Assembly (NCBI RefSeq): GCF_000014265.1
Contig: NC_008312.1
Coordinates: forward strand, 3,060,001 to 3,092,000
DNA: 32,000 nt
Origin: Trichodesmium erythraeum IMS101
GTDB lineage: Bacteria; Cyanobacteriota; Cyanobacteriia; Cyanobacteriales; Microcoleaceae
Reading direction: 5' to 3'
Shown here: positions 9,277 through 31,517 of the stretch, in pieces
Position numbering within the stretch: the stretch's first letter is position 1
Layout: each line of letters begins with the position of its first letter
Notes under the pieces: generated by a model
Databases searched by the model: none
Seen by the model: the letters and a program-made list of their open reading frames with translations, nothing else
Told to the model about the DNA's origin: nothing
Position numbers and translations under genes: made by a program

Positions 9277-10202
9277 AGTTTAAATACTCCGTTTATTTTT
9301 TAAAGATCTACAAAAACTCAATTTTCAAGGAAATATAGCCATCCTCAATGATATTAAAGAAAGTATTATCTGTCCTCAAATAAGGTAGCTAAAAGATTGT
9401 ATTTTTCCTCAAAATAATTTAAGATTAGTCATGCAAAAAATTCAATCAAGCATAGTTTATTAAGAGTCACCTATAGTCTATTGACAACATAGGCTTGCCC
9501 TTAACTTGAAAATGACTTTTCTCTTGACTTTGTCTAATTACAAGTAATTATAACTCGGCTTTTTTTGAATAGATCAAAGGTGAAAATTATTTTCACCTTT
9601 TAGTTAAACTCAAAAAAACATGTGCTTTTTCCTTCACTCGTCCAAAATTTTGAAAAAGATTGACAGTAAAAATAGGGCAGACTATAGATGAACTAGATAA
9701 TTCTATACTTCAAACAAAAGAGGCCACAAAAACATTATTACAGTCCCTTTCAAATTAATGAAATACATCGCCATAACCAAAACTTTGTAGTAACTTTGTA
9801 TGCAACTTACTGTAGTCTAAGGAGATAAAACAAGGTAACAATGGAAAAAAAACTTCTGCCTTTTGTCTCCTACCTTCTTCCTTACTGCTACCAAAGTCTA
9901 ATTCTTTAACTGGAAACAATATAATAAAAACCTTAGAGATAAAAATGATATTGTGAGTAAAACCCTCAAAAGAATTATTAAAAGCTTCTTATAGTTTTAT
10001 TAGTAAATAGAAAAGACCAGCACCTTTTTATTTAGTTGCCAGGCAAAAATTTCATTAGACTATTTAACCATTTTTGCAGTTCTTTTAAAGTAGTTAAATA
10101 GCTATTTAAGTTCTTTGCACTATTGTCAAATATTCAACTCTCTAAAACTTTTTCAGCATAGAAATTTGCCACAACCAATGGGCAAATTTCTAGCTACATT
10201 TA

Positions 10203-11100
10203 TTACCAAGGACTACCAACCATAGTAAACCCTGCCCAATAATAAGGATGAGATAAATTTTGATTCTCAATATCTGCTAAGGCCGGTGGTAACACCACGT
10301 CACCATCAACTCCATTTCTCATCAACTTTCCATCTGTAATAGCCACCTTCCCTTGCAACATTGCTAACTGCGCCTGTCTTAACGCCTCTGACTTAACCTT
10401 AACATCATTCAAATGAGTATAAAACTCTGTCATTAACCCCAATGTACCCTCATCATTCACATACCAAACACTTGCTAAAGCTGACTTGACTCCTGCTGCT
10501 ATTGCTAACCCTGCAAACCCTAACTCTGCCTCTTTATTTCCCACGGCAGTGCGACAAGCAGACAATACCAACAAGTCAACTGATGGGTTACCCCAACCCA
10601 ACTCCCGAACTTGGTCTAACTTTATTTGTTCGTCACCCCATAGTTGAATGTAAGAGTTGCTTGGTCTTCCTGCCTTAAATTCTGCATGGGTAGCTAGGTG
10701 AATAATAGAATAGGGATAATTTTGGCGCTCATTTAACAAATTATTGTGGGTAAATTCTGCATTCAAAAATTGACTCCCAAGCCATAAATTTTGGGAAATT
10801 ATTTCTAACTCCACAGGTACTGCTGGCAAAGGATTTTTAGCAATAAATTCACTAGCTCCCATAGCTAATACTTGAGTACCTTGAAGTGGGCGATAATTTG
10901 TATCCATTAAACTGATACTAGGAATTAAACTTAGGCTATATTTTTCAATTAAAAATTGTTCTCCATCATGTAATGCTGCTACTGGTAAAGCCCGTAAACT
11001 TTCACTCATACTAAACAGTAAAGTATCAATATTTGCTGCTTCTAATTCTGCGGATATAGGTGTAATGAACCAATCATATAATTTTTTTGCTGGTGATAAA
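10203..11100 (-). other. CHAT (caspase-like) domain with candidate His/Cys dyad
   Basis: Candidate catalytic His in HLATHAEF (codon 10686-10688, aa 3139). Candidate catalytic Cys in LVLSACRTA (codon 10554-10556, aa 3183). The terminal YYWAGF motif is typical of CHAT C-termini. Confidence 0.8.
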
Positions 11101-20100: not shown

Positions 20101-20102
20101 AT
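10203..20102 (-). CDS. giant TpsA-type (filamentous haemagglutinin family) exoprotein with internal P-domain and C-terminal CHAT protease domain
   Basis: 3299-aa ORF. It begins with a signal-like N-terminus (LHRVTALSLILGTLATAPANSQ) followed by TPS secretion-domain motifs (ANLFHSFDKFNV, LFLMNPAGIMFG). Long beta-helix-type repeats (NAGQI.IE...L) follow. The internal P-domain contains HTYTGDLDVSLKSPQGK...TWTLKVTD. The C-terminal CHAT domain contains HLATHAEF and LLVLSACRTA. Confidence 0.9.
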   Translation of the reverse strand: MNQYYKDKSFYTLRLHRVTALSLILGTLATAPANSQPITPAKDGTNTTVTPQGQQFNIKGGTRSGANLFHSFDKFNVHSGQTANFVTTPDTRNVLGRVKGGASYINGLIQVLGSSSNLFLMNPAGIMFGRDARLNVPASFSVTTATGIGFDQNNFWFKAMGTNDYSNLLGSPSGYRFDVSKPGSIVNEGNLTLNSGENLTLLGGAVVNTGKLSSPGGNITVTAVEGGSTLKISQPGHVLSLEVEVSHTMSLQDGENISNIDPLSLPELLAGGGDIVEATSVIVKENGDVVLTGSNTMVAETPGTATISGKIDVSTTASSLQDEGDVPTAGQVNVWGDRVALIDTNIKADGKNGGGTVLIGGDFQGLGIVPNSQHTFVNNNSFISADAITNGDGGQVRIWSDGITNFAGNISAKGGTSSGNGGLVKVGGKEQLIFDGKVDVTAALGTEGTILLDPESVTVGEDNSEGEKEIVEENSEVSETENTDNYDGEIVEENSEVSETENTDNLEDKETENPLDPFPADENSDVTISADNLGELSGNVIIDADNDITINERIETDSSVELKAGRSININADIDTKSGNGNIDLFGNNDEMNLANRSDGKGSINQLDGTFLNAGSGGINIKLGSLGEVGDINLGNLRTTGKVLVDANGGNIVRVSENSLINAGSVLFRTSGNGGIGFVGEPLRLDVQNLEAVSGSGGVFFESLKNVNIGGVSEDVVGIATFGGDVDVKSAGNVTLNETISTNGTEESREITDPGGGINIEAAGDIVATGSGIKGGKEGVSMSGTNIRINDEFDETSGDADVKLSATNDIVVEDIEDDVLEFMPGSGEIEFRADKDGDGFGLVKMLDNKPDVGSYPDVFDNGADTIKTNGRGLTIAGAGLVLGNIDTSWFPVYSGGELLKAIDVDEGGAIPPEGTEGTATFTFTVDGDLGTVENIDVRFSAAHTYTGDLDVSLKSPQGKAVKLFASVGRSGDNFQDTVLDDDGSRIIGLGSAPFDGTYRPQESLADFNGENPQGTWTLKVTDTYPSADNGILYRAGEQAPWGTAIGTQLLLRNPLVQSGGGNGGAINLEATHSDISVGNIRSFSKTADGGRIDLKANNNIITGLINSSSVQRNGGAIKLVASGNIITQDLYSYSDSYAGNLADGGAIELVAGGNITTQDLYSYSYSIEGNSRNGGHIFVEANGDITIQGINSSSHSIEGNSGNGGAVSIDGDSNVTATQDLYSYSHSSKGNSGNGGFVSIDAGSNVTATQGINSSSHSIEGNSGNGGFVSVQARINITTQKINSYSLSKKKSGNGGTIDLVAGGNITTQYLNASSRSEKGDSGNGGAIDLDAGDSITTQDLNASSGSEYGDSGDGGDISAKADSDINTQDINSYSDSEYGDSADGGAINLVAGNDIKTQDINAYSRSEKGDSGNGGVVYVQADGNVTIQGLISYSDSSKGSSGDGGTIDLVAGGDITTQDINSFSFSYRGDSGNGGAIDLVAGGDITTQDINSFSFSNGGNSGNGGAVNLHAKQINPPEGGNTEKLKINTFSVGKKESGEGKGGDVSITTNNVSNTEILTVSSGSGSGKITIESQAQEPLQINDSSIITSAQVTLGIRGSETRIDVREKGKSGNVSINSSGDLNLKNVTIESDTKSDQAAGDVNIYSGDNITLNNTDIISTTNSQGNAGQITLETNQNIELTNNSKILASTEGDGNAGQINIEANNLILDQNTKLITETARAGNPGDINIQAKTIEIGEGAKASTTVLTGSTSTGEGGNITINTNELNITGKLGIFAETEASKNAGVLRISPYETNPNLDITFKNEGFISASTSSIGNGGNIFIQAPENIKITGQGFIATETSGAGDAGIIDIKTNNLRISNGVKINASTEDQGNAGEIKINTTEFTLEKGTSLTTETNSAGLAGNIEINTEKLTIGQNAQISATAREGSTNNEAGGNITINANNLEISGKLGIFAETAGESPAGTLTLNPYKNNPNLNIEFQEKGFISARTKSLGKGGDINISAPENINITGDGRITVEAKGSGDAGIINIETENLKIAENTKISASTSDSGNGGEIKINSSETFQLQGKILTETTGTGDGGIINIEAGEIIAPNSRISAKSTDAGNAGTIDITAQGDITTGVVTSAAKNDIETADGGSISITSEQGKINATRAIQSFSEGGSAGDVTLKAQTDITAKTISSHGKQEGGQITITSETGNIDTSSGNFLANYSGGGDAGDITMEAPQGNITTNDIYSYADGDGGQISIKAGNNINIKVNSNIISASEPPNEGNSDKQGQGGDITLEAGNNINTTTANIYSGANEGDTGTIDITADNAIETGKIDLVSGFVRQQEKVNENFTIIPKPEGEATQGKAGDIRLRSRNSTIDTTGGTINSRSPDGTGDIIINAKGNITTGKLEASALNPDKPTTGGDVNITSEQGEINATQNIETFSEQGTAGDINITAVGQIQTNNILSQGMERGGNIQVKSKRGEIQSRGNIDSYSEQGRGGNVKVDAPERVNLANVSSYGMTESGDLIIQSQQAEVNTGNITTQAPEGDSGRIVINGTEVGTGNLSSIARTSAGEINVEATDGSIATYDIEMISGGTVGALTLRATENITTEDVTQNAGEGNVDINIESGRDQNIGNTTQIAKTGDTNNVQTAGRDQNSGNVNQNSGGNANNIQTAGRDQNIGQVTQTAGGNTKNIQTAGRDQNIGQVTQTAGGNTKNIQTAGRDQNIGQVTQTAGGNTKNIQTAGRDQNIGQVTQNAENNTINIQTASGEQNIGQINQTFGNEYINIQGQEINQNLDHSSAISNNNVPNNKVLNQEKLSNNNNNNIENNSTTNSSNNKNILSNFTQSQRSELISTSTPSNNNQTTNTNTAQEQTESSINSTTDTQKILNIIDTVNTNSLTVATGSDQVITILEKSRTKEYSNYFGTDFKEQLLSTKNVREILADMASKTGKESAVVYINAYPEELQIVLYTKDGQPILKTIPKANRKKLEKVVINFLKFMTNPAYRNTNSYLSPAKKLYDWFITPISAELEAANIDTLLFSMSESLRALPVAALHDGEQFLIEKYSLSLIPSISLMDTNYRPLQGTQVLAMGASEFIAKNPLPAVPVELEIISQNLWLGSQFLNAEFTHNNLLNERQNYPYSIIHLATHAEFKAGRPSNSYIQLWGDEQIKLDQVRELGWGNPSVDLLVLSACRTAVGNKEAELGFAGLAIAAGVKSALASVWYVNDEGTLGLMTEFYTHLNDVKVKSEALRQAQLAMLQGKVAITDGKLMRNGVDGDVVLPPALADIENQNLSHPYYWAGFTMVGSPW
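11775..12250 (-). repeat. 69-bp (23-aa) in-frame tandem repeat, ~7 units, three of them nucleotide-identical
   Basis: Unit starts at 11871, 11940, 12009 and 12078 are exactly 69 bp apart and identical until ~12117. Degenerate units flank them. The encoded unit is NIQTAGRDQNIGQVTQTAGGNTK. Confidence 0.95.
15565..16925 (-). repeat. ~15 tandem 90-bp (30-aa) coding repeats
   Basis: The encoded unit is GGAIDLVAGGDITTQDINS(F/Y)S(F/D)S..GDSGN. Adjacent copies at ~15615 and ~15705 are near-identical at the DNA level, and older copies are diverged. Confidence 0.85.
17000..17350 (-). other. proprotein-convertase P-domain-like insert
   Basis: ATFTFTVDGDLGTVENIDVRFSAAHTYTGDLDVSLKSPQGKAVKLF...GDNFQDTVLDDDG...FDGTYRPQESLADFNGENPQGTWTLKVTDTYPSADNG matches the characteristic P-domain pattern. 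No subtilisin/kexin catalytic domain is adjacent. Confidence 0.7.
18587..18699 (-). repeat. 60-bp in-frame tandem duplication (2 copies)
   Basis: 18587-18639 is identical to 18647-18699. It encodes EIVEENSEVSETENTDN twice, within an acidic linker. Confidence 0.95.
19650..19997 (-). other. TPS (haemagglutination-activity / two-partner secretion) domain
   Basis: QFNIKGGTRSGANLFHSFDKFNV...NVLGRVKGG..S.INGLIQV...NLFLMNPAGIMFG matches the conserved TpsA N-terminal secretion-domain pattern. Confidence 0.8.
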
Positions 20103-20945: not shown

Positions 20946-22391
20946 TTACCCTCGTTTCAGAGATTTTGTAAATAACCAGAAAGGAATAAAAATACCTACT
21001 ATGACCATTACTAATACAAATAAGAATACAACCCCCCGCACTTTTGCAGGTAGCTTTGGTCCAACCCAGGGAAATGTGTAAGATTCTGGTTGAGATTTGA
21101 TATCACGGCCCTCATCGGGAGACTTAACGATGACTTGAACGTTATGTGCGGAACCGCGATCTGAACTTGTTGGTTGAACATAGGTAATTTCATACTCGTT
21201 AAGCATGGCGTTGAGGAAGTCAGTTAAAGCATTAGCCACATCATTAGCGCTAGCAGAAAATTCGTGGACTCCTCTAGTAATTTCAGCAATTCTGACCAAG
21301 GACTGTTGATCGACAAATTCTTCGCTAATTTGTTTTAATCTTTTGTAGTTAGTTATATCTGCAACCGGTAAATCATCTTTCAACAAATATAGATTTTCGA
21401 TATTGGGCTCATCCTTTAAATTGTACTCTTGCTTTAATTCTTGGGCGGTTTTACCGTAACCTATAGTATTTACAGTAATATGAGAATTTTCTTCTAATGC
21501 TGGGATAAGTTGGGTTTCAAAATGTTCTCTCTCTGCCTCTGCTTCTGTTTGATATCTTTTTCTTTTTTGTGAATTTGCATAGATGCTGTGATAGCCATCA
21601 GAAAGCAAAATAATTGATAACCTTGGTTCCGGTTCTTTTGAATCTGTTGTTTCCAGCGAATCTGCTTTTGGAGGGTTAAAACGAGGCTCATTTTCGTCCC
21701 CTAAAAATCTTACTGCTGCCATCAAAGGATCGTAAATATTTGTCGCTCCACAAATATCTTTTGGAGCTGTTTCTTGTAGTTCCTTCAGAATATTTTCAAT
21801 TTCGTCACTTCCTGCTGGTTTAAACTCATTGAGTGTTTTCCTGCTGACTTTTTTTCCCACACAACTTCCCCCACTTTCACTAAAAGGTACGATCGCTATT
21901 TTAGTTTTTTGGCTCCGTCCAGCCACATCCTTACTAAATTTTTGAATCGCTTCAATGGCTCCCTTTAATTTACTTTTACCTGAGCATTGAGAAGATCTTT
22001 CATCCCAACTACCCCTTTCCTCGCATCGCTTCATGCTACCGCTAAAATCTAATAAGACAATTACCCAAGCTGGAGGTAGTTTTTCTGGGGCAGGGGTTGT
22101 CCATTTTTTATTACCTAATCCTAGTTCTTGGCACTCTTGGTCTTGGGAACAAACTCTCAAAGTAATACTTTTTTCTGGTAATCGCATTACGGCTTTATTA
22201 TTGCGATCAAATGCTTGAAAGCGTAAGGCTACACTCCCGTCATCTTTATCTGGTTTTGCTTGAATAATTTCTACTCTTTCGACTTGAGCAAAACTAGGAT
22301 GACTCCCAGAAAACAATAATAGCAAAGATAGACTAACCTTGGGGGTCCAAAAAGCGATTGTAGTAAATAAATCTAAAAAGTTTTTGATCAT
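20946..22391 (-). CDS. exported von Willebrand factor A (vWA) domain protein with intact MIDAS and a C-terminal TM anchor (cluster gene 7)
   Basis: MIDAS DxSxS is present as VLLDFSGSM (DFSGS at 22035-22049), plus GATNIYDPL (Thr) and IILLSDGYH (Asp). N-terminal signal-like sequence: VSLSLLLLFSGSHPSFA-QV. C-terminal helix: GVVFLFVLVMVIVGIFIPFWLF, followed by TKSLKRG. I prefer the ATG at 22391 (AGGGAA 7-8 nt upstream) over the ORF-track ATG at 22412, which has no SD. Confidence 0.85.
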   Translation of the reverse strand: MIKNFLDLFTTIAFWTPKVSLSLLLLFSGSHPSFAQVERVEIIQAKPDKDDGSVALRFQAFDRNNKAVMRLPEKSITLRVCSQDQECQELGLGNKKWTTPAPEKLPPAWVIVLLDFSGSMKRCEERGSWDERSSQCSGKSKLKGAIEAIQKFSKDVAGRSQKTKIAIVPFSESGGSCVGKKVSRKTLNEFKPAGSDEIENILKELQETAPKDICGATNIYDPLMAAVRFLGDENEPRFNPPKADSLETTDSKEPEPRLSIILLSDGYHSIYANSQKRKRYQTEAEAEREHFETQLIPALEENSHITVNTIGYGKTAQELKQEYNLKDEPNIENLYLLKDDLPVADITNYKRLKQISEEFVDQQSLVRIAEITRGVHEFSASANDVANALTDFLNAMLNEYEITYVQPTSSDRGSAHNVQVIVKSPDEGRDIKSQPESYTFPWVGPKLPAKVRGVVFLFVLVMVIVGIFIPFWLFTKSLKRG

Positions 22392-23421
22392 TATAATTTC
22401 CCTGTGGAACATGAAATGTAATCATATCATTATGTTTTAATTTAATCGGCCCTGGGGTTGTTAAACGTAGACCTCTATACTCTATTATTCCATAAAATTT
22501 AGGTTGGGGAAATAATAAAGTTTGACCGGGTTTTAACTTTAGTTCGGCCACATTTTCTGGCAATTCTGGAAGATAAATATGTACGTCTTGTCCAGAACCA
22601 ATTTTTATTTTTCCTCTGGCGGGTAATTGAATAGATAATCCCTCTTCAATTCGATCGGCATAATCATCGCTAACAAATTTTAATGGGGGTTTTTTTGTCT
22701 TTTCGATGTGGGGATAATTAGTAGTTTGAGTTAGCAGCGACGAACCATAAAGATACTCAAAACCGGCACCTGCTCTGAGAGCGATCGTGTGACTGGGAGA
22801 GGTGGAAAAACTTAAGACTAAACCTAACAAACCTCCCAAAAAAGAAAATCCTATAGGTTCTTCCCAAGCTTTTAATGCTTCTGGAATTTCACCTCCAAAG
22901 TTTTGTCGCAACTTTTCAAATATTAATGCTGCAGCTAAGGCGGTCAAACTACTAGCAATAAAACTAGTCCAGAAACGCTGTTGATAACGGCGAGAATCTC
23001 CTGCTTCTATGCTACGCCATCGCCAAGTTAATCCTTCTCCTAGACCTACTGCTACTCCAATTAAAACCCACCCTATTATTCTAACAAAAAAGTCTGGTAC
23101 TTGAAAAACATGATCCCGCAGTTGAGGGTGGAGCCAAAGTTGTACTATACCTCCAGAGGTAGTGCCGATCAATAAACCAAGTCCGGCAGCAATTGTTAAG
23201 GGGATAAAACCTGTTTTTAAGTTACGTTGGAATCTGGTGGGGTTGCTGAGAAAAAGATCTATGGCGACTATGCCTATTGCCAGGAAAATTGCCACGCAGG
23301 GAAATAGGCCTAGTTCGGGGATGTTTTTTAACCATTGAAGGTCGCTAATGATAACATGACCAAGGATCCACCCGGTGAGGGCGGATGCGATTCCTGATGA
23401 TATGTAAAGGTAGGTTCTCAT
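22333..23421 (-). CDS. six-TM membrane protein with C-terminal degenerate FHA-like beta domain (cluster gene 6)
   Basis: Six hydrophobic helices occupy aa 5-235. K/R-rich loops 2 and 4 (NPTRFQRNLK, WRWRSIEAGDSRRYQQR) imply N-in/C-in topology. The C-terminal ~95 aa (GKIKIGSGQDVHIYLPE...IKLKHNDMITF...FRFIY) follow the FHA beta-sandwich spacing but lack the canonical G-R, S-x-x-H and N-G residues. Confidence 0.8.
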   Translation of the reverse strand: MRTYLYISSGIASALTGWILGHVIISDLQWLKNIPELGLFPCVAIFLAIGIVAIDLFLSNPTRFQRNLKTGFIPLTIAAGLGLLIGTTSGGIVQLWLHPQLRDHVFQVPDFFVRIIGWVLIGVAVGLGEGLTWRWRSIEAGDSRRYQQRFWTSFIASSLTALAAALIFEKLRQNFGGEIPEALKAWEEPIGFSFLGGLLGLVLSFSTSPSHTIALRAGAGFEYLYGSSLLTQTTNYPHIEKTKKPPLKFVSDDYADRIEEGLSIQLPARGKIKIGSGQDVHIYLPELPENVAELKLKPGQTLLFPQPKFYGIIEYRGLRLTTPGPIKLKHNDMITFHVPQGNYNDQKLFRFIYYNRFLDPQG

Positions 23422-23475: not shown

Positions 23476-26151
23476 CTATTCTAGCAATTGTCTTTGGATA
23501 TCTTGTTTTAACCTCTGATATGTTTCTTCACTATAATGAATTATGCCATCGCCTCCATTTTGGTATTCTCGAATAGAATTAACAAACTTTTCCACCTCTT
23601 GTGGGTTTCCTTTTTCTATAGCACCTGCATAATCTGTTATTCCTACAAAAGTATTTTTGATAGCATTGATAATCTGGCTGCGATCAAACTTTTCTTGTCT
23701 TAAGTTTTCATCTTCTAACAACTCTTCTATCAGTTTTTCTAAAGCTGGCTTAGTTTTGTTAGCAAAATTGAATCTTTCTTCATATTGTGTTTTTATTTCT
23801 TCTTTTAACCTTTGATATGTTTGTTTACCATAATTAATTATGCCATCACCTCCATTTTGGTATTGTTGAATAGAATTAACAAACTTTTCTACCTCTTTTG
23901 GCTTTCCTTCTTCTATGGTAGCTGTATAATCTGTTATTCCCACAAAAGTATTTTTGATAGCATTAATAATCTGGATGCGGTCAATATTTTTTTGTCTTAA
24001 ACTGTTATCTTGCAACAACTCTTCTATCAGTTTTTCTAAAGCTGGCTTCGTTCTATTAGCAAAGTTGAACAGTAAAGTATTGTTTACTTCTTTTTCAATT
24101 CTTTCATCTGTTTCAAAATTATCATCTATGTATCCATACCCTTTTTCTCCTGTGTTGGCTTGATACCAATAGATAGCCTCTATCAATTGCTTTTTGTGAT
24201 TTTCATTGCCTTGAATTGCGGAGCTATAATCAAGGTTCGGGTTGCCAATAATGGCTTTAATTTCCTTTATTACTTGATTGCGCATTATTTGTGGATCCGC
24301 TTGATTAAACTTTTCCGTTAGTTGATTTGTAAGTCTCTTGACAAGAGCCTCCATCACTGTAGCAGTTGTTGAAAATTCACTAGATGCCTTAGTCATAGGA
24401 GGAATTATTTCAACTTGTCTCGCAGCATTTAATCCTTCTTGATAACCAACTTGATAGCCCTTGTCATAGCCTTCTTGTTCTCCTGCTTCTCTTGCCTGTT
24501 CTAATGTTTCCCCATTTGAGTTTTTTAACCCTATTTTACCTTTACTTTGTAAACCTAGCATATAAGAAAACAAGTTAGTTAGCACAAGAATGAATATTGC
24601 CGCCAAAGATAAAGAATATCTTCTCAACAAGTTAATCAGATGCTCATCCCAAGTAACTTCTCTGTTTAGTGTCAAACCCCAAAGATCTGATTTATCTTTG
24701 TTTTTAAAAGCTTTCAGAAATAAATTTTTCGGTACCACCCCTTTACTGACTTGGTAAAAATAGGAAGCTAACTGATAGTCACCCAACCTCTCAAACAAAT
24801 CCGCAAAAGGTTGATAATAGCTATAACGATAGTTGGGTCCCGGAAGCCCACTTTGCAAGTTTTTCCAAATCGAATCTCCACAAGCAAACGAAGGTTCCGA
24901 CGGGCTATCATCAGAAGAGTTCAAATAGTTATCAATAGCTTCTAAATCATCTCTGACATTTTGCAAAAGTGAGGCGCGATATGACGACCAAAGACTTTTT
25001 TGTGCAGTTAATAACCAACTGAATGCTGGAATTGATATCTTCTTCTTCAATATTTGCTCCAGGACACTCTTCATGCTTCCATCAATTAATGGCTCTAGTT
25101 GTAAAATATGTTTTTTAAGTTGTCCTTGAAACTCAAGAGAAACTTTTTGCTTATTATCCCCTTTTCCCTTATTTTTGCCATCAATACCAAACCATTCTAG
25201 ATACTCAGGCAAAGTATCTGGAATAATTATCGCCCTTAAAGTTAAAAGTCGCACCATTTGAGGGCTATAATTTCTCTGCTTAATCCTAGTATGGGCACCT
25301 TGATCATCAAAGATTGTTTGGCAATGGTCTGAAGTTACTTGCTCGTTCTGTAAAAGAGCTTGAATCCATTCCTGCTTAATTTGCGAACCACCTATCAAAC
25401 CTTTTATTGCTAATTCAATAGAGGGTTCATCAACACTTGATAGATTATCAATTGAAGCATTCCCTATTCTTATTAGATCTTGATACGCTTTTTCATCAGC
25501 CGCTTGAATAACTAGAAATCTTCTTGCACGTTCCACAGCCTCCACATCATATGCCCAAGATACAAGTTGACCATTAGCTATCTTCTCAGCTACTGCATTA
25601 ATTGTCTGTAGATCGGAAACTTGTCCTGGTTGAAGAATCAAAGCTCGTTGATAGTTGCTTGTCAAAGAATTTAGCTCTGAAGGTAAGGTTACTAGGGGTT
25701 TATTAGAAATATTGTGATAGTTCGGCTTGCCAATTTCCTTAATTTCCGATGGATTGAAAATTGGTAGTCGTCCGTATTTTTGCGAATAATTATCTATCGC
25801 ATCTAATATTACCCAGAGTCGATCTACTCCCTGGCATAAAATATATCGATAAAAAGAGTTAAAAAGCCCGTAGTCATCCCTTCCTGGAGTCACTACCGCT
25901 ACCACCGACCAAGCGGGATCTGCATTTTTGCCCCTAACCTCTCGTCCTACAAAAGTAGGTTTTTGACTATGACTATCCTTGGATACCTCAAACATTTTGT
26001 TAGCGATCGCTAGTTGGACAACATAGGGAATTTGCGGCAAGGTTGAGTTCATATATTCTCCTACCTTATACCCCCGCGATCTCCAACTGCTATCGGGCAA
26101 TGTTTCTACATTTATACCAGTGCTGAATTCGTGTATATTATAAGTAGGCAT
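23476..26151 (-). CDS. bitopic membrane protein, paralog 2 (cluster gene 5); unknown ~505-aa cytoplasmic region, one TM, three peptidoglycan-binding-like modules; function unknown
   Basis: 891-aa ORF. Its N-terminal 505 aa are highly similar to the upstream paralog. TM helix YSLSLAAIFILVLTNLFSYMLGL lies at ~24555-24623. The C-terminus has three ~100-aa modules ending in the pattern A/S-I-x-x-Y-Q-(6-10)-DG-I-I-x(4-6)-T-x-x-x-L. Confidence 0.9.
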   Translation of the reverse strand: MPTYNIHEFSTGINVETLPDSSWRSRGYKVGEYMNSTLPQIPYVVQLAIANKMFEVSKDSHSQKPTFVGREVRGKNADPAWSVVAVVTPGRDDYGLFNSFYRYILCQGVDRLWVILDAIDNYSQKYGRLPIFNPSEIKEIGKPNYHNISNKPLVTLPSELNSLTSNYQRALILQPGQVSDLQTINAVAEKIANGQLVSWAYDVEAVERARRFLVIQAADEKAYQDLIRIGNASIDNLSSVDEPSIELAIKGLIGGSQIKQEWIQALLQNEQVTSDHCQTIFDDQGAHTRIKQRNYSPQMVRLLTLRAIIIPDTLPEYLEWFGIDGKNKGKGDNKQKVSLEFQGQLKKHILQLEPLIDGSMKSVLEQILKKKISIPAFSWLLTAQKSLWSSYRASLLQNVRDDLEAIDNYLNSSDDSPSEPSFACGDSIWKNLQSGLPGPNYRYSYYQPFADLFERLGDYQLASYFYQVSKGVVPKNLFLKAFKNKDKSDLWGLTLNREVTWDEHLINLLRRYSLSLAAIFILVLTNLFSYMLGLQSKGKIGLKNSNGETLEQAREAGEQEGYDKGYQVGYQEGLNAARQVEIIPPMTKASSEFSTTATVMEALVKRLTNQLTEKFNQADPQIMRNQVIKEIKAIIGNPNLDYSSAIQGNENHKKQLIEAIYWYQANTGEKGYGYIDDNFETDERIEKEVNNTLLFNFANRTKPALEKLIEELLQDNSLRQKNIDRIQIINAIKNTFVGITDYTATIEEGKPKEVEKFVNSIQQYQNGGDGIINYGKQTYQRLKEEIKTQYEERFNFANKTKPALEKLIEELLEDENLRQEKFDRSQIINAIKNTFVGITDYAGAIEKGNPQEVEKFVNSIREYQNGGDGIIHYSEETYQRLKQDIQRQLLE
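23500..24075 (-). repeat. 297-bp (99-aa) in-frame tandem duplication inside paralog 2
   Basis: For example, 23508-23552 aligns with 23805-23850 and 23547-23772 aligns with 23844-24069, at a constant 297-bp offset and high identity by eye. It encodes F-N-F-A-N-(K/R)-T-K-P-A-L-E-K-L-I-E-E-L-L...Y-Q-N-G-G-D-G-I-I. Confidence 0.9.
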
Positions 26152-26207
26152 TTGCTTTAATCCTTATCTAATTCTTGATTGCGTTTGCCAGTATAAAGCT
26201 AATAAAT
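26152..26207 (-). pseudogene. 56-nt relic of the 3' end of GTPase gene 3 (duplication scar) immediately upstream of paralog 2
   Basis: 26152-26207 matches 29045-29100 at 54 of 56 positions. The original encodes ...IYWLCTGKRNQELDKD*. In the relic a C-to-T change turns TGG (Trp) into TAG. Similarity stops abruptly at 26208/29101. Confidence 0.85.
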
Positions 26208-26358
26208 TTTCAAATATTAATCCTACCACTAAAGCATCAAACTATTATTAGTAAAGCCAGCCCCAAAATATTTTTTATTGTAACGGACTATTCCTATGGC
26301 AAGGAAGATTACTACCCAGGAAAATAGGGTGAATGCTATTTCTAATAAGATTTGAAGG

Positions 26359-26427
26359 TAGGTTATCATTATGTTTATTGATTTTCTGATGTGAAGATAG
26401 GTTATCATTATGTTTATTGATTTTCTG
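26359..26427. repeat. 30-bp direct repeat (39-bp period) spanning the stop codon of paralog 1
   Basis: TAGGTTATCATTATGTTTATTGATTTTCTG occurs at 26359-26388 and again at 26398-27427-equivalent position 26398-26427. The second copy contains the TAA stop (26414-26416). Confidence 0.9.
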
Positions 26428-29044
26428 GGGAATTTTTATATTTGTTGGGGTTATTTGCCAATTCATTTTTTACCTGTTCCAGCAAAATATTAAACGTATT
26501 TTGAATTGTCCTATCTAAAGGTTTTTTAGGCTCATTAATTATCCCATCAGGTTCTCCTTGAATCTTGTTTTTTTGTTGGTATTTATAAATAGCAATAACT
26601 AAGGCGTTTTTACCCTCAGGTATCGCTTCTCGTGCCTTTTTATATTCAAAATTCTTCACATTACCAATAGTCTCGCGAATAGCTTGGTGAATCGCTTCTT
26701 GATCAAGTCCTAAATATCTCAACTCTGATATAATTCGACTGATTGCTTCGTAAGTTATCTCGTTAAACTTGTCCTTACTAGTAGCAATCTTTTTTTGATC
26801 TTCTGTCATTTCTGGTAAACAATTCTCTGGCCAATCTTGCCATTTCCAACTTAGAGATTCAGCTACGTTACACTTCAATAAATTAGCTGTATTATCATCA
26901 GGATTTATATATCCATTAGGCGGATTTTTTAGCTTTTCCTGTTTGTTCTGTTGGTATGAATAGATGGCTTTTACCCATTTTTTGCGAGCCTCTTTTCTTT
27001 TTTGCTTCCCTACTATCAAAAAATATAGTTTAGTAGTTGCTTGCTCATAATTAAGTGCTGAATCATTAGCAAGAATCTTCTGAATTTCTTGGACAAACTT
27101 TTGTTTTTCTAATTCCTCTTGCTTTGCCACTTCTAAAGAAGCTAGATCGGATGTGATTTTATCAATTGCTCTGATACTCTGAGGGAAATTGTCAAGTGCT
27201 ATATTCATCTCTTTTTCTAATATATTCCTTGGAATAGAAGGACTTGGACTTGGACTTGGACTTGGACTTAGACTTAGATTTGGACTTGGACTTATATTTG
27301 GACTTGGACTTGGACTTGGTGTCGTATTCTTGATTTTGTTAATAGCATCTTCTTGTCCCTTTAAATAACCCTGACTATATGCTATTCGTAGCTGTTGTTC
27401 CCCTGGTTTTTGTGCTTGAGGTGTTTGATTTTGTCCTTTACCTATCAAATATCCGATTGTCAAAAAAACAATTGCTATAGTCAAACGCAAAGAATTTTTG
27501 ATCAAGCAACGAATCAGATGTTCTTCCCAAGAAATTTCTCTCTTTAGTGTCAAACCCCAAAGATCTGATTTGTCTTCGTTGTTTTTAAGAGCTTTCAGAA
27601 ATAAATTTTTCGGCACCACCCCCTTACTGACTTGGTAAAAATAGGAAGCTAACTCATAGTCACGCAACCTCTCAAACAAATCCGCAAAAGGTTGATAATA
27701 GCTACCACGATAGTTGGGTTTCCGCAGCTCACTTTGCAATTTTTTCCAAATCGAATCTCCACAAGCAAACGAAGGTTCCGACGGGCTATCATCAGATTTC
27801 AAATTGTGATCAATAGTTTCTAAATCATTTCTGACATTTTTCACGAGCGAGGGGCGATACGACGACCAAAGGCTTTTTTGTGCAGTTAACAACCAACTGA
27901 ATGCTGGAATTGATATCTTCTTCTTCAATATTTGCTCCAGGATACTTTTCATGCTTTCATCAATTAACGGCTTTAGTTGTAAAATATATCTTTGAAGTTT
28001 TCCTTGAAACGCAAGAGAAACTTTTTGCTTATTATCCTCTTTTCTCTTATTTTTGCCATCAATACCAAACCATTCGAGATACTCAGGTAAAGTCTCTGGA
28101 AGAATTATTGCCCTTAAAGTTAAAAGTCGCACCATTTGAGCACTAGAATTTCTCTGCTTAATCCCAGTATGGGCACCCCGATCATCAAAGATTATTTTCC
28201 AATGCTCTGAAGTTACTTGATCGTCCTGTAAAAGAGCTTGAATCCATTCCTGCTTAATTTGCGAACCGCTGCTCAAAGCTTTTATTGCTGTTTCAATGGC
28301 CGCTCCATCAACATGTGATGGAAGGGTGGCTTTGGGATTATTAATTGAAGCATTCCCTATTTTCCTTAGACCTTGATACGCTTTTTCATCAGCCGCTTGA
28401 ATAACTAGAAATCTTTCTGCATCTTCCACCGCCTCCACATCGTATGCCCAAGATACAGGTTGACCATTAGCTATCTTCTCAGCCATTGCATTAATTGTCT
28501 GTAGATCAGACACTTTTCCTGGTTGAAGAATCAAAGGTAGTTGATGGTTACCTGCCAAAGCATTTAGCTCTGAAGGTAAGGTTACTAGGGGCTTATTAGA
28601 AATATTGTGATGGTTCGGCTTGCCAATTTCTTTAATTTCCAATGGATTGAAAATTGGTGGTTGTCCGTATTGTTGCCAATAACTATTGATCTCATCTAAT
28701 ATTACCCAGAGTCGATCTACTCCCTGACATAAAAAATATCGATAAAAAGAATTAAAACGCCCGTATTCATCTCCTCCTGGAGTGACTACCGCTACCACTG
28801 ACCAACCGGGAGCTCCATTGTTGCCCCTAACCTCTCGTCCTACAAAAGTAGGTTTTTGACTATGACGATCCTTGGATACCTCAAACATTTTGTTAGCGAT
28901 CGCTCGTTCAACAACTAAGGGAATTTGCGGCAAGGTTAAGTTCATATATTCTCCTACCTTATACCCCCGCGATCTCCAACTGCCATCGGGCAATTTTTCT
29001 ACATTTATACCAGTGCTGAATTCGTGTATATTATAAGTATGCAT
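26414..29044 (-). CDS. bitopic membrane protein, paralog 1 (cluster gene 4); same N-terminal region, one TM, Ser-Pro linker, two divergent peptidoglycan-binding-like modules; function unknown
   Basis: 876-aa ORF whose ATG lies 5 nt after the stop of GTPase 3. TM helix LRLTIAIVFLTIGYLIG lies at ~27443-27493, followed by the linker SPSPSPNISPSPNLSLSPSPSPSPSPS. The modules contain AIYSYQQNK...NGYINPDDNT and AIYKYQQKNKIQGEPDGIINEPKKPLDRT. Confidence 0.9.
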   Translation of the reverse strand: MHTYNIHEFSTGINVEKLPDGSWRSRGYKVGEYMNLTLPQIPLVVERAIANKMFEVSKDRHSQKPTFVGREVRGNNGAPGWSVVAVVTPGGDEYGRFNSFYRYFLCQGVDRLWVILDEINSYWQQYGQPPIFNPLEIKEIGKPNHHNISNKPLVTLPSELNALAGNHQLPLILQPGKVSDLQTINAMAEKIANGQPVSWAYDVEAVEDAERFLVIQAADEKAYQGLRKIGNASINNPKATLPSHVDGAAIETAIKALSSGSQIKQEWIQALLQDDQVTSEHWKIIFDDRGAHTGIKQRNSSAQMVRLLTLRAIILPETLPEYLEWFGIDGKNKRKEDNKQKVSLAFQGKLQRYILQLKPLIDESMKSILEQILKKKISIPAFSWLLTAQKSLWSSYRPSLVKNVRNDLETIDHNLKSDDSPSEPSFACGDSIWKKLQSELRKPNYRGSYYQPFADLFERLRDYELASYFYQVSKGVVPKNLFLKALKNNEDKSDLWGLTLKREISWEEHLIRCLIKNSLRLTIAIVFLTIGYLIGKGQNQTPQAQKPGEQQLRIAYSQGYLKGQEDAINKIKNTTPSPSPSPNISPSPNLSLSPSPSPSPSPSIPRNILEKEMNIALDNFPQSIRAIDKITSDLASLEVAKQEELEKQKFVQEIQKILANDSALNYEQATTKLYFLIVGKQKRKEARKKWVKAIYSYQQNKQEKLKNPPNGYINPDDNTANLLKCNVAESLSWKWQDWPENCLPEMTEDQKKIATSKDKFNEITYEAISRIISELRYLGLDQEAIHQAIRETIGNVKNFEYKKAREAIPEGKNALVIAIYKYQQKNKIQGEPDGIINEPKKPLDRTIQNTFNILLEQVKNELANNPNKYKNSPENQ
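27238..27320 (-). repeat. GGACTT hexanucleotide microsatellite-like tract encoding the (Ser-Pro)n linker of paralog 1
   Basis: Runs of GGACTTGGACTTGGACTT are interrupted by TTAGAC and TTATAT variants. Confidence 0.9.
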
Positions 29045-29049
29045 TTGCT

Positions 29050-29946
29050 TTAATCCTTATCTAATTCTTGATTGCGTTTGCCAGTACAAAGCCAATAAAT
29101 AGGCGAAACTAAACCAAAAGGCCGCCACATTTTAGGTTTTTCTAAAACCGATGAAACCCCACCCCGATCACGCTCTATTTGTATGGAATTAGGTCTGGGA
29201 AATCTATTTCCTAAAACTCCAAAAGCTGAAACGGCAAAATAGTCTATATTACCAGAACCCCCTCGTTCCCAAAACTCCAGCTTTCTGCAAGTTTCTCGGA
29301 AGCGAGCTTGAGCCACATATTTTGGTTTCTGTCGATTTATCCACAAATCGGCCAATTCGCACTTACTCAAAACCAGAGCAATTCTCCGCTTTTGAATTTG
29401 TGCCTCAGAGCGATCCAACTCTACCAAAAGCTTCTCGATCGCTCTAGCATATTCCCCATCTTTCTGATGGGCCGTTCCATCAATCAATAACAAAATTCCC
29501 GATGCCAACAAACAGTCTTCTAAATAGTCCTTAAATAAAGGCAAATCAGTTTGATTCAGCAACTCGCTGAAAAATTCTCCCGAATAATCCTTGCAACTTA
29601 TATCTAAGTTAACCAAAGACTTCTTTCTATCCAATACCAACTCTTTTTTTAGAGTTATCCTCAAGCTATAATTCTTCAGAGTATAAACATTATCAAGCAA
29701 CGGAGTTTGTTTCATGGGTTCCCCTTGTTCCAAAATATCCCGAGCTTTTTTGATTAACTCTTCTCCATCTTTATTTGAAGCAGTTACCGCCTCAACCAAA
29801 CGGGTATTTTGAGAATTTGGCCACCTAGCCAAAGCGGCCATATAAGTAGTCTTACCAGCAGAGCGATCGCCTATCAGCCGCAGGACACCAGATAAATTTT
29901 GCTCTTGAGATTCTTCACCTTTATCTTTAAATAGAGATTTAAACAC
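29050..29946 (-). CDS. small P-loop GTPase-like protein 3 (cluster gene 3)
   Basis: G1/Walker A GDRSAGKT (29848-29871), G3-like DYSGE (DYSG at 29578-29589) and a G4-position SKCE (29356-29367). The GTG start overlaps the stop of gene 2 by 8 nt, with AGAGGA ~9 nt upstream. The C-terminal WRPFGLVSPIYWLCTGKR motif is shared with GTPase 2. Confidence 0.85.
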   Translation of the reverse strand: MFKSLFKDKGEESQEQNLSGVLRLIGDRSAGKTTYMAALARWPNSQNTRLVEAVTASNKDGEELIKKARDILEQGEPMKQTPLLDNVYTLKNYSLRITLKKELVLDRKKSLVNLDISCKDYSGEFFSELLNQTDLPLFKDYLEDCLLASGILLLIDGTAHQKDGEYARAIEKLLVELDRSEAQIQKRRIALVLSKCELADLWINRQKPKYVAQARFRETCRKLEFWERGGSGNIDYFAVSAFGVLGNRFPRPNSIQIERDRGGVSSVLEKPKMWRPFGLVSPIYWLCTGKRNQELDKD

Positions 29947-30757
29947 CAGATCGCATCCTCTTACCCGTACTTAACCAATATAAGGGCGAAATCAGCCCGT
30001 AGGGTCGCCACTGATGCGGCGATCGTAAAACAGAACGCAGACTCCCCTCCTCATCAGCACGATTCGGACGAGGATTGTTCCTTTCCAGAACCCCAAAAGT
30101 AGATATGGCATAAAATTGTAAATTATTCTTAGGAATCCTCTGGCGCAAAATTTTTCTAGTGCGGGGCAAATGTACTTCAAATAAGTCCAATTCCGGGTCC
30201 AGACGACCAGGCCAAATTTCTCCCCTTTCGCATTTACTCATTGCCACTGCCAGTCGCAAATTTTTTAGGCGATCGCGCCTGTCCATTAAATCCATAAATC
30301 TCCCTATCATCCTCCTGTAAAATTGGTCGTTGCCCAACTCCCATTTATGGAGGAGCAATAAACAGCCAACAATATCTGGAATTAAACATTCATTGAGAAA
30401 TTCTTGATGTATTTCATTAGAAATTCCCGAGGCCAAATCGTCAAAAATTTCCCCTGGATAATCTCGAACCACTAAATTGATTTCCTCTGGTTTGCGCCAC
30501 CTCCTCTTTTTTTCTATTTGAAAAGAATACAACGGTAAATCGTAAACAGTTTTAATTTTGAACCCATCTATCTCTGTCCTCCTTAAAGAATCTCCACTAA
30601 GAATAATATCTTCAGCTTGATTTACTAAATTTTGTGCCTCTTTTGTGATAGGAGTAACTTCAAAATTTTGGTTATGAGTATCCGGCCAATATGCCAGTCC
30701 TGCCAGATAAGTTGTTTTGCCAGAACTCCTCGGTCCGATAATACAAATATTTCCCAT
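29939..30757 (-). CDS. small P-loop GTPase-like protein 2 (cluster gene 2)
   Basis: GGAGGAGGA Shine-Dalgarno just upstream of the ATG. G1 GPRSSGKT (30713-30736), G3-like DYPGE (DYPG at 30452-30463) and a G4-position SKCE (30227-30238). It is a clear paralog of GTPase 3 along its whole length. Confidence 0.85.
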   Translation of the reverse strand: MGNICIIGPRSSGKTTYLAGLAYWPDTHNQNFEVTPITKEAQNLVNQAEDIILSGDSLRRTEIDGFKIKTVYDLPLYSFQIEKKRRWRKPEEINLVVRDYPGEIFDDLASGISNEIHQEFLNECLIPDIVGCLLLLHKWELGNDQFYRRMIGRFMDLMDRRDRLKNLRLAVAMSKCERGEIWPGRLDPELDLFEVHLPRTRKILRQRIPKNNLQFYAISTFGVLERNNPRPNRADEEGSLRSVLRSPHQWRPYGLISPLYWLSTGKRMRSGV

Positions 30758-30770
30758 ATTTCCTCCTCCA

Positions 30771-31517
30771 TTAATTAGCTAAATAACTAGCTAAATAGAT
30801 CCAGGGCAACTCCAGCAAACTACGATCATAGATACTGGTAATAAAACAGCGAACTGATAACCCAGGCCGACTCCTATTTATTTGTGCTATTTGGGATTTT
30901 ACCAATCGAAAATAACTATTAACTACATAATTATGACGCTGAAGCCAATTCATCGAAGAACCATCTGGTCGATAAGCCAACCTTTCCGACTCCTCAGAGA
31001 GATTGCAATTTATTAGATCCGCCTTGTTCAGACAAATAACAATATGCTTGGCCTTAGGACAATCATCACAAAAAAATCTAGCCCAACTCTCAAAGCCATT
31101 ACACCACTGCTTTTGAGTCACAAAATTTGTCACCTCCAGATTAGGCAACAATATTTCCCGATAAGGTGGCAAAATCAGCAAAACCCCCTCGCTTTGCCGG
31201 ACAATTTCTTGAAAAGATTCCCATTCCTGGGGGTGTTCCCACTGCCAAGACCTACGAAAGATTTCCCCTGGAGAGTCGATCCAATCTACGGGAACTTCGT
31301 TTAAACCACTAGGCAACCGTACTTGGAGGTTTAGGGGACGATATTGGATGTTTTGAGTTTGTTTGGCCGTTCCATCGCTATTCAGGAGATTGGCCTTAAG
31401 GTTTTGATAAGTTTGGCCCACCATAGAAACCTGGACGTATTGCCCCTGGGGATTAACTAATTCTAGGGCTAAATGAGTTTTGCCTACCGCGCGATCGCCT
31501 ATATAGACGACTCCCAC
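30771..31517 (-). CDS. small P-loop GTPase 1 with canonical NKxD (cluster gene 1)
   Basis: GTG start. G1 GDRAVGKT (31476-31499), G3 DSPGE (DSPG at 31266-31277) and a canonical G4 NKAD (31017-31028). It is shorter than GTPases 2 and 3 and has a different C-terminus. Confidence 0.85.
   Translation of the reverse strand: MGVVYIGDRAVGKTHLALELVNPQGQYVQVSMVGQTYQNLKANLLNSDGTAKQTQNIQYRPLNLQVRLPSGLNEVPVDWIDSPGEIFRRSWQWEHPQEWESFQEIVRQSEGVLLILPPYREILLPNLEVTNFVTQKQWCNGFESWARFFCDDCPKAKHIVICLNKADLINCNLSEESERLAYRPDGSSMNWLQRHNYVVNSYFRLVKSQIAQINRSRPGLSVRCFITSIYDRSLLELPWIYLASYLAN

Follow-up and report, generated by a model that had tools for sequence, protein, structure and literature searches.

Concerted evolution by gene conversion is familiar in bacteria from tufA/tufB and from the opa/pil loci of Neisseria. 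Gene systems centred on DO-GTPases, a family defined by the Walker B glutamate of a DxxGE motif, have also been described, and in these a three-domain GAP1 protein is encoded downstream (Kaur, Burroughs, Iyer, Aravind 2020, PMC7159879). In the GAP1-N2 type the GAP1 protein often has C-terminal transmembrane segments and extracytoplasmic domains, and vWA, kinase and PP2C themes are found alongside (PMC7159879). Such GTPase-centric systems are enriched in multicellular, filamentous bacteria, and are reported as “nearly completely absent in cyanobacteria” (PMC7159879). Both paralog gene conversion and DO-GTPase systems are thus already known. The locus presented here is found in a stretch of 32,000 nucleotides (nt) from the cyanobacterium Trichodesmium erythraeum IMS101 (NC_008312.1, positions 3,060,001 to 3,092,000). 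This whole stretch is termed the window, and all coordinates are window positions. Seven genes are arranged in a run on the minus strand, in the transcription order G1, G2, G3, X1, X2, a polytopic membrane protein and a vWA protein. G1, G2 and G3 encode GTPases; X1 and X2 are the tandem paralogs 1 and 2 of a family here called X. In these two genes concerted evolution is restricted to the 5′ 1.6 kb. We think it probable that X is the single variable component of the gene cassette, and that homogenisation of the N-terminal halves of X1 and X2 by gene conversion has given rise to two receptor-like isoforms.

The features used in the comparison of the two paralogs are as follows:

26414-29044, minus strand: X1, 876 amino acids (aa), with N region, transmembrane helix, GxxxG helix, Ser-Pro linker and 2 C-terminal modules (open reading frame (ORF) and AlphaFold2 (AF2) model)
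23476-26151, minus strand: X2, 891 aa, with N region, transmembrane helix, GxxxG helix and 3 C-terminal modules (ORF)
27489-29100, minus strand: homogenised block in X1, 56 nt upstream plus codons 1 to ~518 (blastn)
24611-26207, minus strand: homogenised block in X2 (blastn)
26152-26207, minus strand: relic of the G3 3′ end upstream of X2, which translates as LYTGKRNQELDKD and stop, compared with WLCTGKRNQELDKD and stop in G3 (alignment, translation)
27440-27517, minus strand: predicted transmembrane helix of X1, aa ~510-535 (hydropathy; AF2 helix 506-535), where the similarity between the copies ends
24550-24606, minus strand: predicted transmembrane helix of X2, aa 516-534 (hydropathy score 2.13)

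The original prediction, made from the window alone, was of a tandemly duplicated pair with a conserved cytoplasmic half and a replaced external half. The tandem pair is borne out, with genes of 876 and 891 aa that are both on the minus strand. The region of similarity had been placed at 27512-29100 and 24634-26207; its 5′ ends coincide with those given by blastn, and its 3′ ends are at most 23 nt off. In the blastn alignment, X1 (29100..27489) and X2 (26207..24611) display 89.7% DNA identity over 1615 columns, and the shared block extends from 56 nt 5′ of both ATGs to the transmembrane helix. At the aa level the identity is ~82% over residues 1-505 (BLASTP, MAFFT), where about four of five residues over ~505 codons had been estimated. 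The collapse of similarity described near the transmembrane helix is also seen: over the 50 residues that include the helix identity is down to 40%, and beyond them it is 12-30%. Also found as described are a small indel (NPKATLPSHVDGAA versus NLSSVDEPS), a Ser-Pro tract in paralog 1 only, a motif after the transmembrane helix in both copies (YSQGYLKGQED and YDKGYQVGYQE), and the same kind of ~100-aa module in both, of which a module hidden Markov model (HMM) detects 2 copies in X1 and 3 in X2.

The words “conserved” and “replaced” do not describe the two halves well. In a codon-aware Nei-Gojobori analysis the N halves of X1 and X2 show a synonymous divergence (dS) of 0.116, a nonsynonymous divergence (dN) of 0.090 and a dN/dS (omega) of 0.77, and ~10% of sites differ, scattered over the whole block. 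There is no sign here of strong purifying selection; the likeness of the N halves is maintained by gene conversion. In the C halves dS is ~1.3 (saturated) and dN is 0.84. These are diverged copies, differing in number, of one ~99-aa module family, and not unrelated replacements.

Important is the sequence that precedes X2. The X1 ATG is found 5 nt after the G3 stop codon, and the last ~13 codons of G3 are present as a relic 5′ of X2. Thus the 5′ end of X2 derives from the G3-X1 junction.

Gene conversion was assessed by comparison with other Trichodesmium loci. Two metagenome assemblies, L079 and L080, are IMS-like and have an 876-aa and an 890-aa gene. T. erythraeum 21-75 (L085) has an 893-aa gene and a 634-aa gene, the second with a single X2-type module. 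L081-L084, from TARA samples, represent a second lineage at species level, in which a single gene of 864 aa has an X1-type C half. When the window is compared with L079, DNA identity is 100% for G1, G2, G3, the membrane-protein gene, the vWA gene and the C half of each X gene, and differences in the locus are confined to the N halves of X1 and X2. X1 shows 14 differences (nt 5 and a tract at nt 225-318), and every one is the base of the paralog; the chance expectation for 14 out of 14 is ~1e-20. X2 shows ~45 variable columns, which include a 3-nt indel and lie in tracts at gene nt 50-178 and 1140-1328, and again all of these correspond to the base or gap of the other paralog. Since every strain difference is the base of the paralog, and since outgroup states show transfers between X1 and X2 in both directions, gene conversion is ongoing and bidirectional. 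In L079 itself, X1 and X2 are identical across nt 1-300 and differ at 3 positions across nt 1101-1400, and a third X1 haplotype (P0003) has an additional X2-like patch.

The relationships of the two halves are in agreement with this. In an N-domain tree, X1 and X2 of the IMS type (window and L079) cluster with a bootstrap of 95, to the exclusion of L085_p1, L081 and L085_p2. In the C half the orthology follows the copy, with an identity of 76-84% between X1 and its counterparts L081 and L085_p1 and of 80% between X2 and L085_p2. The identity profile is a mosaic, with X2 nearest to X1-type orthologs only at nt 1200-1400. Differences that track the paralog, paralogs that group by genome and patchy tracts are the marks of concerted evolution. 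As in tuf, opa and pil conversion, the patches are short, bidirectional and non-reciprocal and the paralogs cluster by genome; however, in X1 and X2 conversion is confined to one gene half and ends at the transmembrane helix, and X is a fast-evolving gene and not a highly conserved housekeeping gene.

A recent partial duplication with a head swap should also be considered, in which a ~1.6-kb copy of the G3 tail and the X1 5′ region was fused to a pre-existing or horizontally acquired 3′ half. The breakpoints are indeed sharp on both sides and the G3 3′ relic is found upstream of X2. Allelic replacement of C halves also does happen in Microcoleus, where in a species pair the dS of the X C half is 1.65 and that of the neighbours is 0.15-0.44, a disparity that points to replacement of the outer half. 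However, the diverged lineage of strain 21-75 (L085) already has both copies, with 12.6% difference between their N halves, strain differences are conversion patches in both directions, and the identity profile is mosaic. A single recent event is ruled out as a full account by these three observations. This alternative is thus unlikely as an explanation of the locus, but a partial duplication of this kind may have been the founding step.

X is the fastest-evolving member of the cassette. Omega for the N half of X1/X2 between Trichodesmium orthologs is 0.63-0.90. Between Trichodesmium lineages it is 0.67-0.84 for X1 and 0.71 for X2, with similar values in both halves, and for aa 1-135 it is ~1.0-1.8, from small counts. 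Neighbouring genes in Trichodesmium have an omega of 0.07-0.16 (GTPases), 0.17 (membrane protein) and ~0.2 (vWA), within a range of 0.07-0.21. In Dapis, Okeania, Nostocales and Microcoleus, 8 of 9 pairs display an X omega of 0.27-0.38, with neighbours mostly at 0.06-0.27. The ninth pair (L048-L062) has an X omega of 0.74, driven by the C half, and the C half in pairs from these groups shows values up to 0.6-1.5. Between Microcoleus L039 and L048/L049 the dS of the X C half is 1.65 or saturated, and flanking genes are at 0.13-0.51.

These rates bring up redundancy and decay, whereby selection was relaxed after duplication, one or both copies are pseudogenes in the making and the pattern would be functionally meaningless. 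The X dN/dS of 0.67-0.90 in Trichodesmium and of ~1 or more for aa 1-135 would fit this, as would the disrupted second copy of the closest outgroup (L001) and the split copy 2 of Hormoscilla. Nevertheless the X ORFs are intact in four independent assemblies and lineages, the family-invariant residues are kept in both X1 and X2, and X is the fastest cassette gene in other genera too. In addition, the single-copy gene of L081 has an omega of 0.67 when compared with L085_p1; the high rate is therefore a property of X and not of redundancy. We consider decay an improbable explanation of the pair.

The N region of X consists of three globular parts, shown here for X1 together with the linker that follows the transmembrane helix:

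28640-29044, minus strand: aa 1-135, alpha+beta domain with the order beta-beta-alpha-beta-beta-beta-alpha (AF2 models)
28331-28615, minus strand: aa 144-238, alpha/beta domain (AF2 of aa 1-238)
27587-28306, minus strand: aa 247-486, all-helical domain (AF2 secondary structure)
27240-27319, minus strand: (GGACTT)x13 microsatellite that forms the Ser-Pro linker (Tandem Repeats Finder, TRF)

The full-length AF2 model of X1, from a 105-sequence alignment, has a mean predicted local distance difference test score (pLDDT) of 86.9, with values >90 across the greater part of the N region; aa 1-238 modelled on their own reach a pLDDT of 91. Invariant motifs IHEFSTGI and YRYFL are found within aa 1-135, and TLRA is another patch that is invariant in the family. 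The juxtamembrane helix with its Y-x-x-G-Y-x-x-G motif is of low confidence in the model and is followed by a disordered linker and the helical modules. In X2 a glycine repeat at aa ~545-605 shows a sub-threshold Pfam Yae1_N match (25.2 bits, cut-off 27.5) and weak NCBIfam FliH matches. The Ser-Pro tract is polymorphic in length, being longer in 21-75 (L085) and much shorter in the TARA lineage (L081/P0004).

X has no signal peptide and a single hydrophobic helix, and because of this the N region is predicted to be cytoplasmic and the modules periplasmic. The topology should thus be N-in/C-out. Searches of Pfam, NCBIfam, PADLOC and PDB sequences found nothing for the N region, and the full-length X1 model gave no Foldseek match at E<=0.001. 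For aa 1-238 the top Foldseek matches are weak and are to TagF of two species (6iz8, 2qnu, 9t0n; E 3.9e-3 to 1.4e-2, probability 0.38-0.87, TM-score 0.15-0.27), with TM-scores of 0.23-0.27 for the consistent top matches at E 4e-3 to 1e-2. Since the dedicated model of aa 1-238 raised the TagF matches only to E ~4e-3, X was not assigned as a TagF homolog. A longin/DENN-type GTPase regulator, suggested by the strand order, was dropped, as no longin, roadblock or DENN structure is among the top 50 Foldseek matches.

C-terminal modules were counted with an HMM built from one module, and in the window are located as follows:

26852-27190, minus strand: X1 module 1, aa 619-731 (module HMM 86 bits)
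26459-26767, minus strand: X1 module 2, aa 760-862 (module HMM 61 bits)
24073-24378, minus strand: X2 module 1, aa 592-693 (module HMM 80 bits)
23485-24063, minus strand: X2 modules 2 and 3, aa 697-790 and 796-889 (module HMM, TRF)

All C-terminal repeats of the X family are the same ~99-aa helical domain. Among relatives (n=106), 91 have one module, 14 have two, and three are found in X2 only. Modules 2 and 3 of X2 are a 297-nt internal tandem duplication with 86% identity (TRF) and a dS of 0.26 between them. A PDB sequence search with the module profile found no solved structure. PG_binding_1 (PF01471), a three-helix peptidoglycan-binding domain, matches 8 of 44 modules at E<=1, the best at 22.9 bits, just below the gathering score of 23. 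The alignment covers profile positions 18-57 of 57 and corresponds to the C-terminal 40 residues of the module, with the consensus WVxAIYxYQ...DGII...T...LK. The likeness is thus sub-threshold, and the X module differs from PG_binding_1 in its length of ~99 aa and its extra N-terminal helical part.

In the module tree, modules 2 and 3 of X2 group with module 2 of Hormoscilla copy 2. Module 2 of X1 groups with module 2 of a metagenome protein, P0040, whose N domain groups with Hormoscilla copy 1. Both C-terminal subtypes are present in Hormoscilla, and their order is the same. X1 and X2 may tentatively be taken to have C halves that are old subtypes of one module.

The pattern of a constant N part and a variable C part, with a large haemagglutinin-like CHAT protein nearby, also brings to mind a polymorphic toxin locus of the contact-dependent inhibition type, with a constant delivery part and swappable toxin tips. 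This is very unlikely, as in all ~100 family members the C half is built from a single kind of helical module that is not enzymatic, the nearby CHAT gene is not a constant companion of the cassette, and Pfam, PADLOC and NCBIfam scans revealed no toxin domain, immunity gene, secretion signal or orphan C-terminal cassettes for X. The earlier suggestion of a polymorphic surface module does not hold in the toxin sense. An assembly artefact, with collapsed or chimeric reads at 24.6 and 27.5 kb, can be set aside almost entirely, because the same two-gene layout is found in independent assemblies (the same genes and junctions in L079 and L080, a diverged form in L085), and the N halves differ at ~10% of sites along the whole block.

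The genes that adjoin X1 and X2 are the following:

30771-31517, minus strand: G1, a third small GTPase, 248 aa (motifs GDRAVGKT, DSPGE and NKAD read from sequence)
29939-30757, minus strand: G2, DO-GTPase-like GTPase, 272 aa (Pfam DO-GTPase1 27.6 bits, cut-off 27)
29050-29946, minus strand: G3, DO-GTPase-like GTPase, 298 aa (P-loop GDRSAGKT, DYSGE, SKCE)
22333-23421, minus strand: polytopic membrane protein, 362 aa, with a conserved C-terminal domain (adjoins X in 52 loci)
20946-22412, minus strand: vWA protein, 488 aa, with an N-terminal signal-like segment and a C-terminal transmembrane anchor (hydropathy)

G2 and G3 are 35% identical (BLASTP E 1e-52). G3 scores 42.5 bits with DO-GTPase2 and 34.6 bits with DO-GTPase1, with a cut-off of 27 for both. 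G1 shows weak Roc and Rab5 similarity and no DO-GTPase match in Pfam. The Walker B glutamate motif DxxGE can be read in G1 (DSPGE), G2 (DYPGE) and G3 (DYSGE). With this glutamate and with Pfam scores above the cut-off, G2 and G3 belong to the DO-GTPases. At the usual position of the NKxD guanine-specificity motif, G2 and G3 have SKCE and G1 has NKAD. G2 and G3 also have in common a C-terminal motif, WRP(F/Y)GL(V/I)SP(I/L)YWLxTGKR, part of which is the relic copied upstream of X2.

The vWA protein has Pfam VWA_2 and NCBIfam VWFA matches, each below its own cut-off. The C-terminal domain of the membrane protein matches FHA (PF00498) weakly in a single one of the 8 orthologs, with an E of 0.068 and coverage of profile positions 2-66 of 67, and the membrane protein of the window has no match to PF00498. 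By eye the domain displays a resemblance to the FHA motif, IGS...LHxA...NG, and it is possibly FHA-like, which is kept as a hint.

This arrangement is similar to that of GAP1-N2 systems. X is directly downstream of paralogous DO-type GTPases and has three globular regions in a row, and the cassette includes a vWA protein; in other cyanobacteria, zinc-ribbon-FHA, kinase-like plus PP2C and NTF2-like (ARC6 IMS) proteins are added. The membrane-proximal accessory themes of GAP1 systems are vWA, kinase plus PP2C, transmembrane segments and cell-wall-binding domains; in the window these themes are represented by the transmembrane-anchored vWA protein and the polytopic membrane protein. However, the X cassette has three GTPases and not one or two, and its GTPases are without zinc ribbons. 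None of 24 X family members matches the Pfam models GAP1-N1, -N2, -M or -C even at E<=1, X1 and X2 give no such match at E<=0.01, and none is recorded for Trichodesmium X orthologs. Pfam scans of the seven cassette proteins and of recurrent downstream clusters of related loci revealed no FNIII or GASH domain; an FNIII-repeat protein accompanies the N2 type and a helical GASH protein the N1 type.

The six-gene cassette is widespread in cyanobacteria. In 185,579 species genomes 78 X loci were found, all cyanobacterial and mostly from filamentous forms. Homologs of G2/G3 are present in 71 of these loci, and the counts for G1, the membrane protein and vWA are 60, 52 and 50; many contigs end short, and where contigs are long enough the gene order is G1-G2-G3-X-membrane protein-vWA. 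X homologs are also found on eight cyanobacterial plasmids, and a phage collection has no X relative. A profile search of 1.84 billion representative proteins gave 574 clusters at E<=1e-3. The X relatives with an organism name given by the source are all cyanobacterial, and the 150 best of the 574 clusters, all at E<=1e-122, provide no bridge from X to GAP1. RefSeq annotates all core cassette genes as hypothetical, and a literature search found no paper on this cassette.

Trichodesmium has the core cassette only. In Nostocales, Microcoleus, Spirulina and others (e.g., L027, L031, L033, L062 and L077) the cassette is extended, ~3-10 kb downstream of X. The extension has 2-5 paralogous secreted ARC6-like IMS (NTF2-like) proteins, extra vWA proteins, a small conserved protein of ~130 aa, a zinc-ribbon-FHA protein and a kinase-like protein (Pfam Pkinase), in which a PP2C-type DGMGG motif was read from the sequence. 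The cassette on plasmid B of Trichormus variabilis has a hydrolase of the beta-lactamase family (Beta-lactamase2) as well.

Copy number and C-terminal variants of X differ across related strains and genera, as had been anticipated. Two to three tandem full or partial copies with mosaic identity are found in ~12 other genomes. In Anabaenopsis (L067), identity between copies 1 and 2 is 62-89% for the N part and 21-50% for the C part, so that the pattern of alike N and different C parts has arisen independently; copies 2 and 3 are 100% identical except for a patch around the transmembrane helix.

Taken together with the established anatomy, cassette conservation, gene conversion, elevated dN/dS and recurrent tandem multiplication, these comparisons allow a mechanism to be proposed. 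X would be a bitopic protein with a ~510-aa cytoplasmic region of three parts, a transmembrane helix, a juxtamembrane GxxxG helix and 1-3 periplasmic modules. The duplication appears to be old, since two lineages of T. erythraeum have both copies and Hormoscilla has both C-terminal subtypes. Over their 5′ 1.6 kb, X1 and X2 are overwritten repeatedly, in patches of ~95-190 bp and in both directions. Conversion halts at the transmembrane helix, perhaps because the sequences beyond are too diverged to recombine, because distinct outer parts are selected, or both. The outcome would be two isoforms with near-identical cytoplasmic parts and different periplasmic parts, both of which would work with the same GTPases, membrane and FHA partners, and conversion would keep them compatible with this single partner set. 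The periplasmic modules may read a cell-wall or envelope cue, such as peptidoglycan or another envelope ligand. The cassette would then be a membrane-proximal signalling or conflict system of the type of Kaur et al., with X as its diversifying specificity component.

The original prediction of a GTPase-docking region combined with alternative extracellular heads stands in part. X is predicted to be bitopic and adjoins three GTPase genes, and because the X genes are directly downstream of these, a GTPase-associated cytoplasmic part with alternative outer parts is reasonable; docking itself and an extracytoplasmic location of the heads are suggested by gene order and the logic of topology.

It should be noted that several observations weigh against the proposal of two receptor-like isoforms. 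The putative function of X as a whole, including GTPase docking, is drawn from the same gene order and topology logic, and the positive-inside rule is uninformative for the X transmembrane helix (113 family members). The window's own five modules have no PG_binding_1 match. The X dN/dS of 0.7-0.9 in Trichodesmium could reflect relaxed constraint instead of diversifying selection, two causes that pairwise omega cannot fully separate. The neighbour-joining trees of the 100-aa modules are without bootstrap support, and for this reason the age of the duplication relative to Hormoscilla is tentative; the genes may instead have been duplicated independently and have exchanged C-terminal alleles afterwards. 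Hormoscilla copy 2 has a very divergent N domain that is split into 2-3 ORFs in both assemblies.

[quoted passage not shown] PpkA carries a periplasmic vWA domain. TagF is described as acting by binding the FHA protein Fha (PMC5995506). TagF is a weak structural neighbour of X aa 1-238, and the extended cassette encodes FHA, kinase-like, PP2C and periplasmic vWA proteins. However, the cassette is without T6SS genes, X has no sequence similarity to TagF, TagF is soluble, and the T6SS pathway is without GTPases.

A broader view, which we regard as possible but put forward with some doubt, is that the cassette is an unrecognised trans-envelope switch specific to cyanobacteria, with X as its membrane-spanning regulator or platform. 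X would then begin with an alpha+beta domain of TagF-like kind, have the alpha/beta and helical domains next, and would be a non-homologous replacement of GAP1 or a GAP1 diverged beyond recognition. A periplasmic read-out of the cell wall (PG_binding-like, vWA and ARC6-IMS domains) would be coupled to the DO-type GTPase trio and to an FHA/kinase/PP2C relay. Half-gene conversion would serve to diversify the receptor heads and keep the isoforms fit for one GTPase machine. If so, filamentous cyanobacteria would be likely to use the cassette to sense phages or envelope damage.

New here are a three-GTPase cyanobacterial cassette, a protein in the GAP1 position without detectable similarity to GAP1 or to solved structures, and gene conversion confined to the predicted cytoplasmic half of a receptor-like gene. 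The cassette is compact, widely conserved and partly plasmid-borne, has a DO-type GTPase core in a phylum reported to be nearly without such systems, and extends the catalogue of GTPase-centred conflict or signalling systems. X adds a new protein family of ~510 aa, for which the structural model is confident and solved structures include no close relative. Concerted evolution of half a gene offers a model for receptor isoforms that share one set of intracellular partners while their outer parts diverge. As a nitrogen fixer Trichodesmium is of global importance, and cell-death pathways are involved when its blooms collapse; a fast-evolving putative envelope sensor near CHAT proteases is a possible candidate for an environmental role.

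Rearranged X copies are found in several genomes. In L001, a metagenome-assembled genome from a tar biofilm and the closest relative outside Trichodesmium, a broken second copy at 12512-13459 has a 156-aa N-terminal fragment that is 80% identical to X1, then an unrelated CxxC zinc-finger-like stretch, possibly a mobile element, and a module tail of X2 type. Second copies in Dolichospermum, Cuspidothrix and Raphidiopsis loci (L043, L051, L072) are partial and start at the helical domain, at ~aa 245. A chimeric ORF in L057 (10366-13386) has the helical half fused ahead of a complete X copy. Recombination may thus have a second hotspot where the alpha/beta domain meets the helical domain.

On the far side of the cassette, two very large minus-strand genes (4492-20102) are found between the vWA gene and the aminotransferase (2275-3909) and AMP-binding (2-1867) genes. 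One of these, at 10203-20102, encodes a 3299-aa protein whose N terminus looks haemagglutinin-like by eye and whose C terminus looks CHAT-like; the product of the other, of 1594 aa, has RTX, PPC and Por_Secre_tail domains. In L081 nothing separates the vWA gene from the aminotransferase and AMP-binding genes, and because of this ~16 kb look inserted in the window. T. erythraeum 21-75 has a different CHAT-domain protein on the G1 side of the cassette (L085, 1-645), which is 24% identical (E 1e-4) to the C-terminal ~400 residues of the 3299-aa protein, and no CHAT protein is present at the L081 cassette. For these reasons the CHAT protein was rejected as a cassette member, and CHAT proteases appear to be tied to the cassette loosely and not stably.

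Two further observations relate to spacing within the gene run. The longest vWA ORF overlaps the membrane-protein gene by ~80 nt (22333-22412); vWA orthologs are called at 481 aa, which corresponds to an ATG at 22391, and a comparable overlap is seen in most related loci. Just past the X1 stop codon, within a 262-nt spacer, a 39-nt unit absent from the rest of the window is repeated twice in tandem with a 95% match (26349-26427). It is overlapped by a minus-strand promoter-like hexamer pair, a type of site no more frequent than in shuffled sequence.

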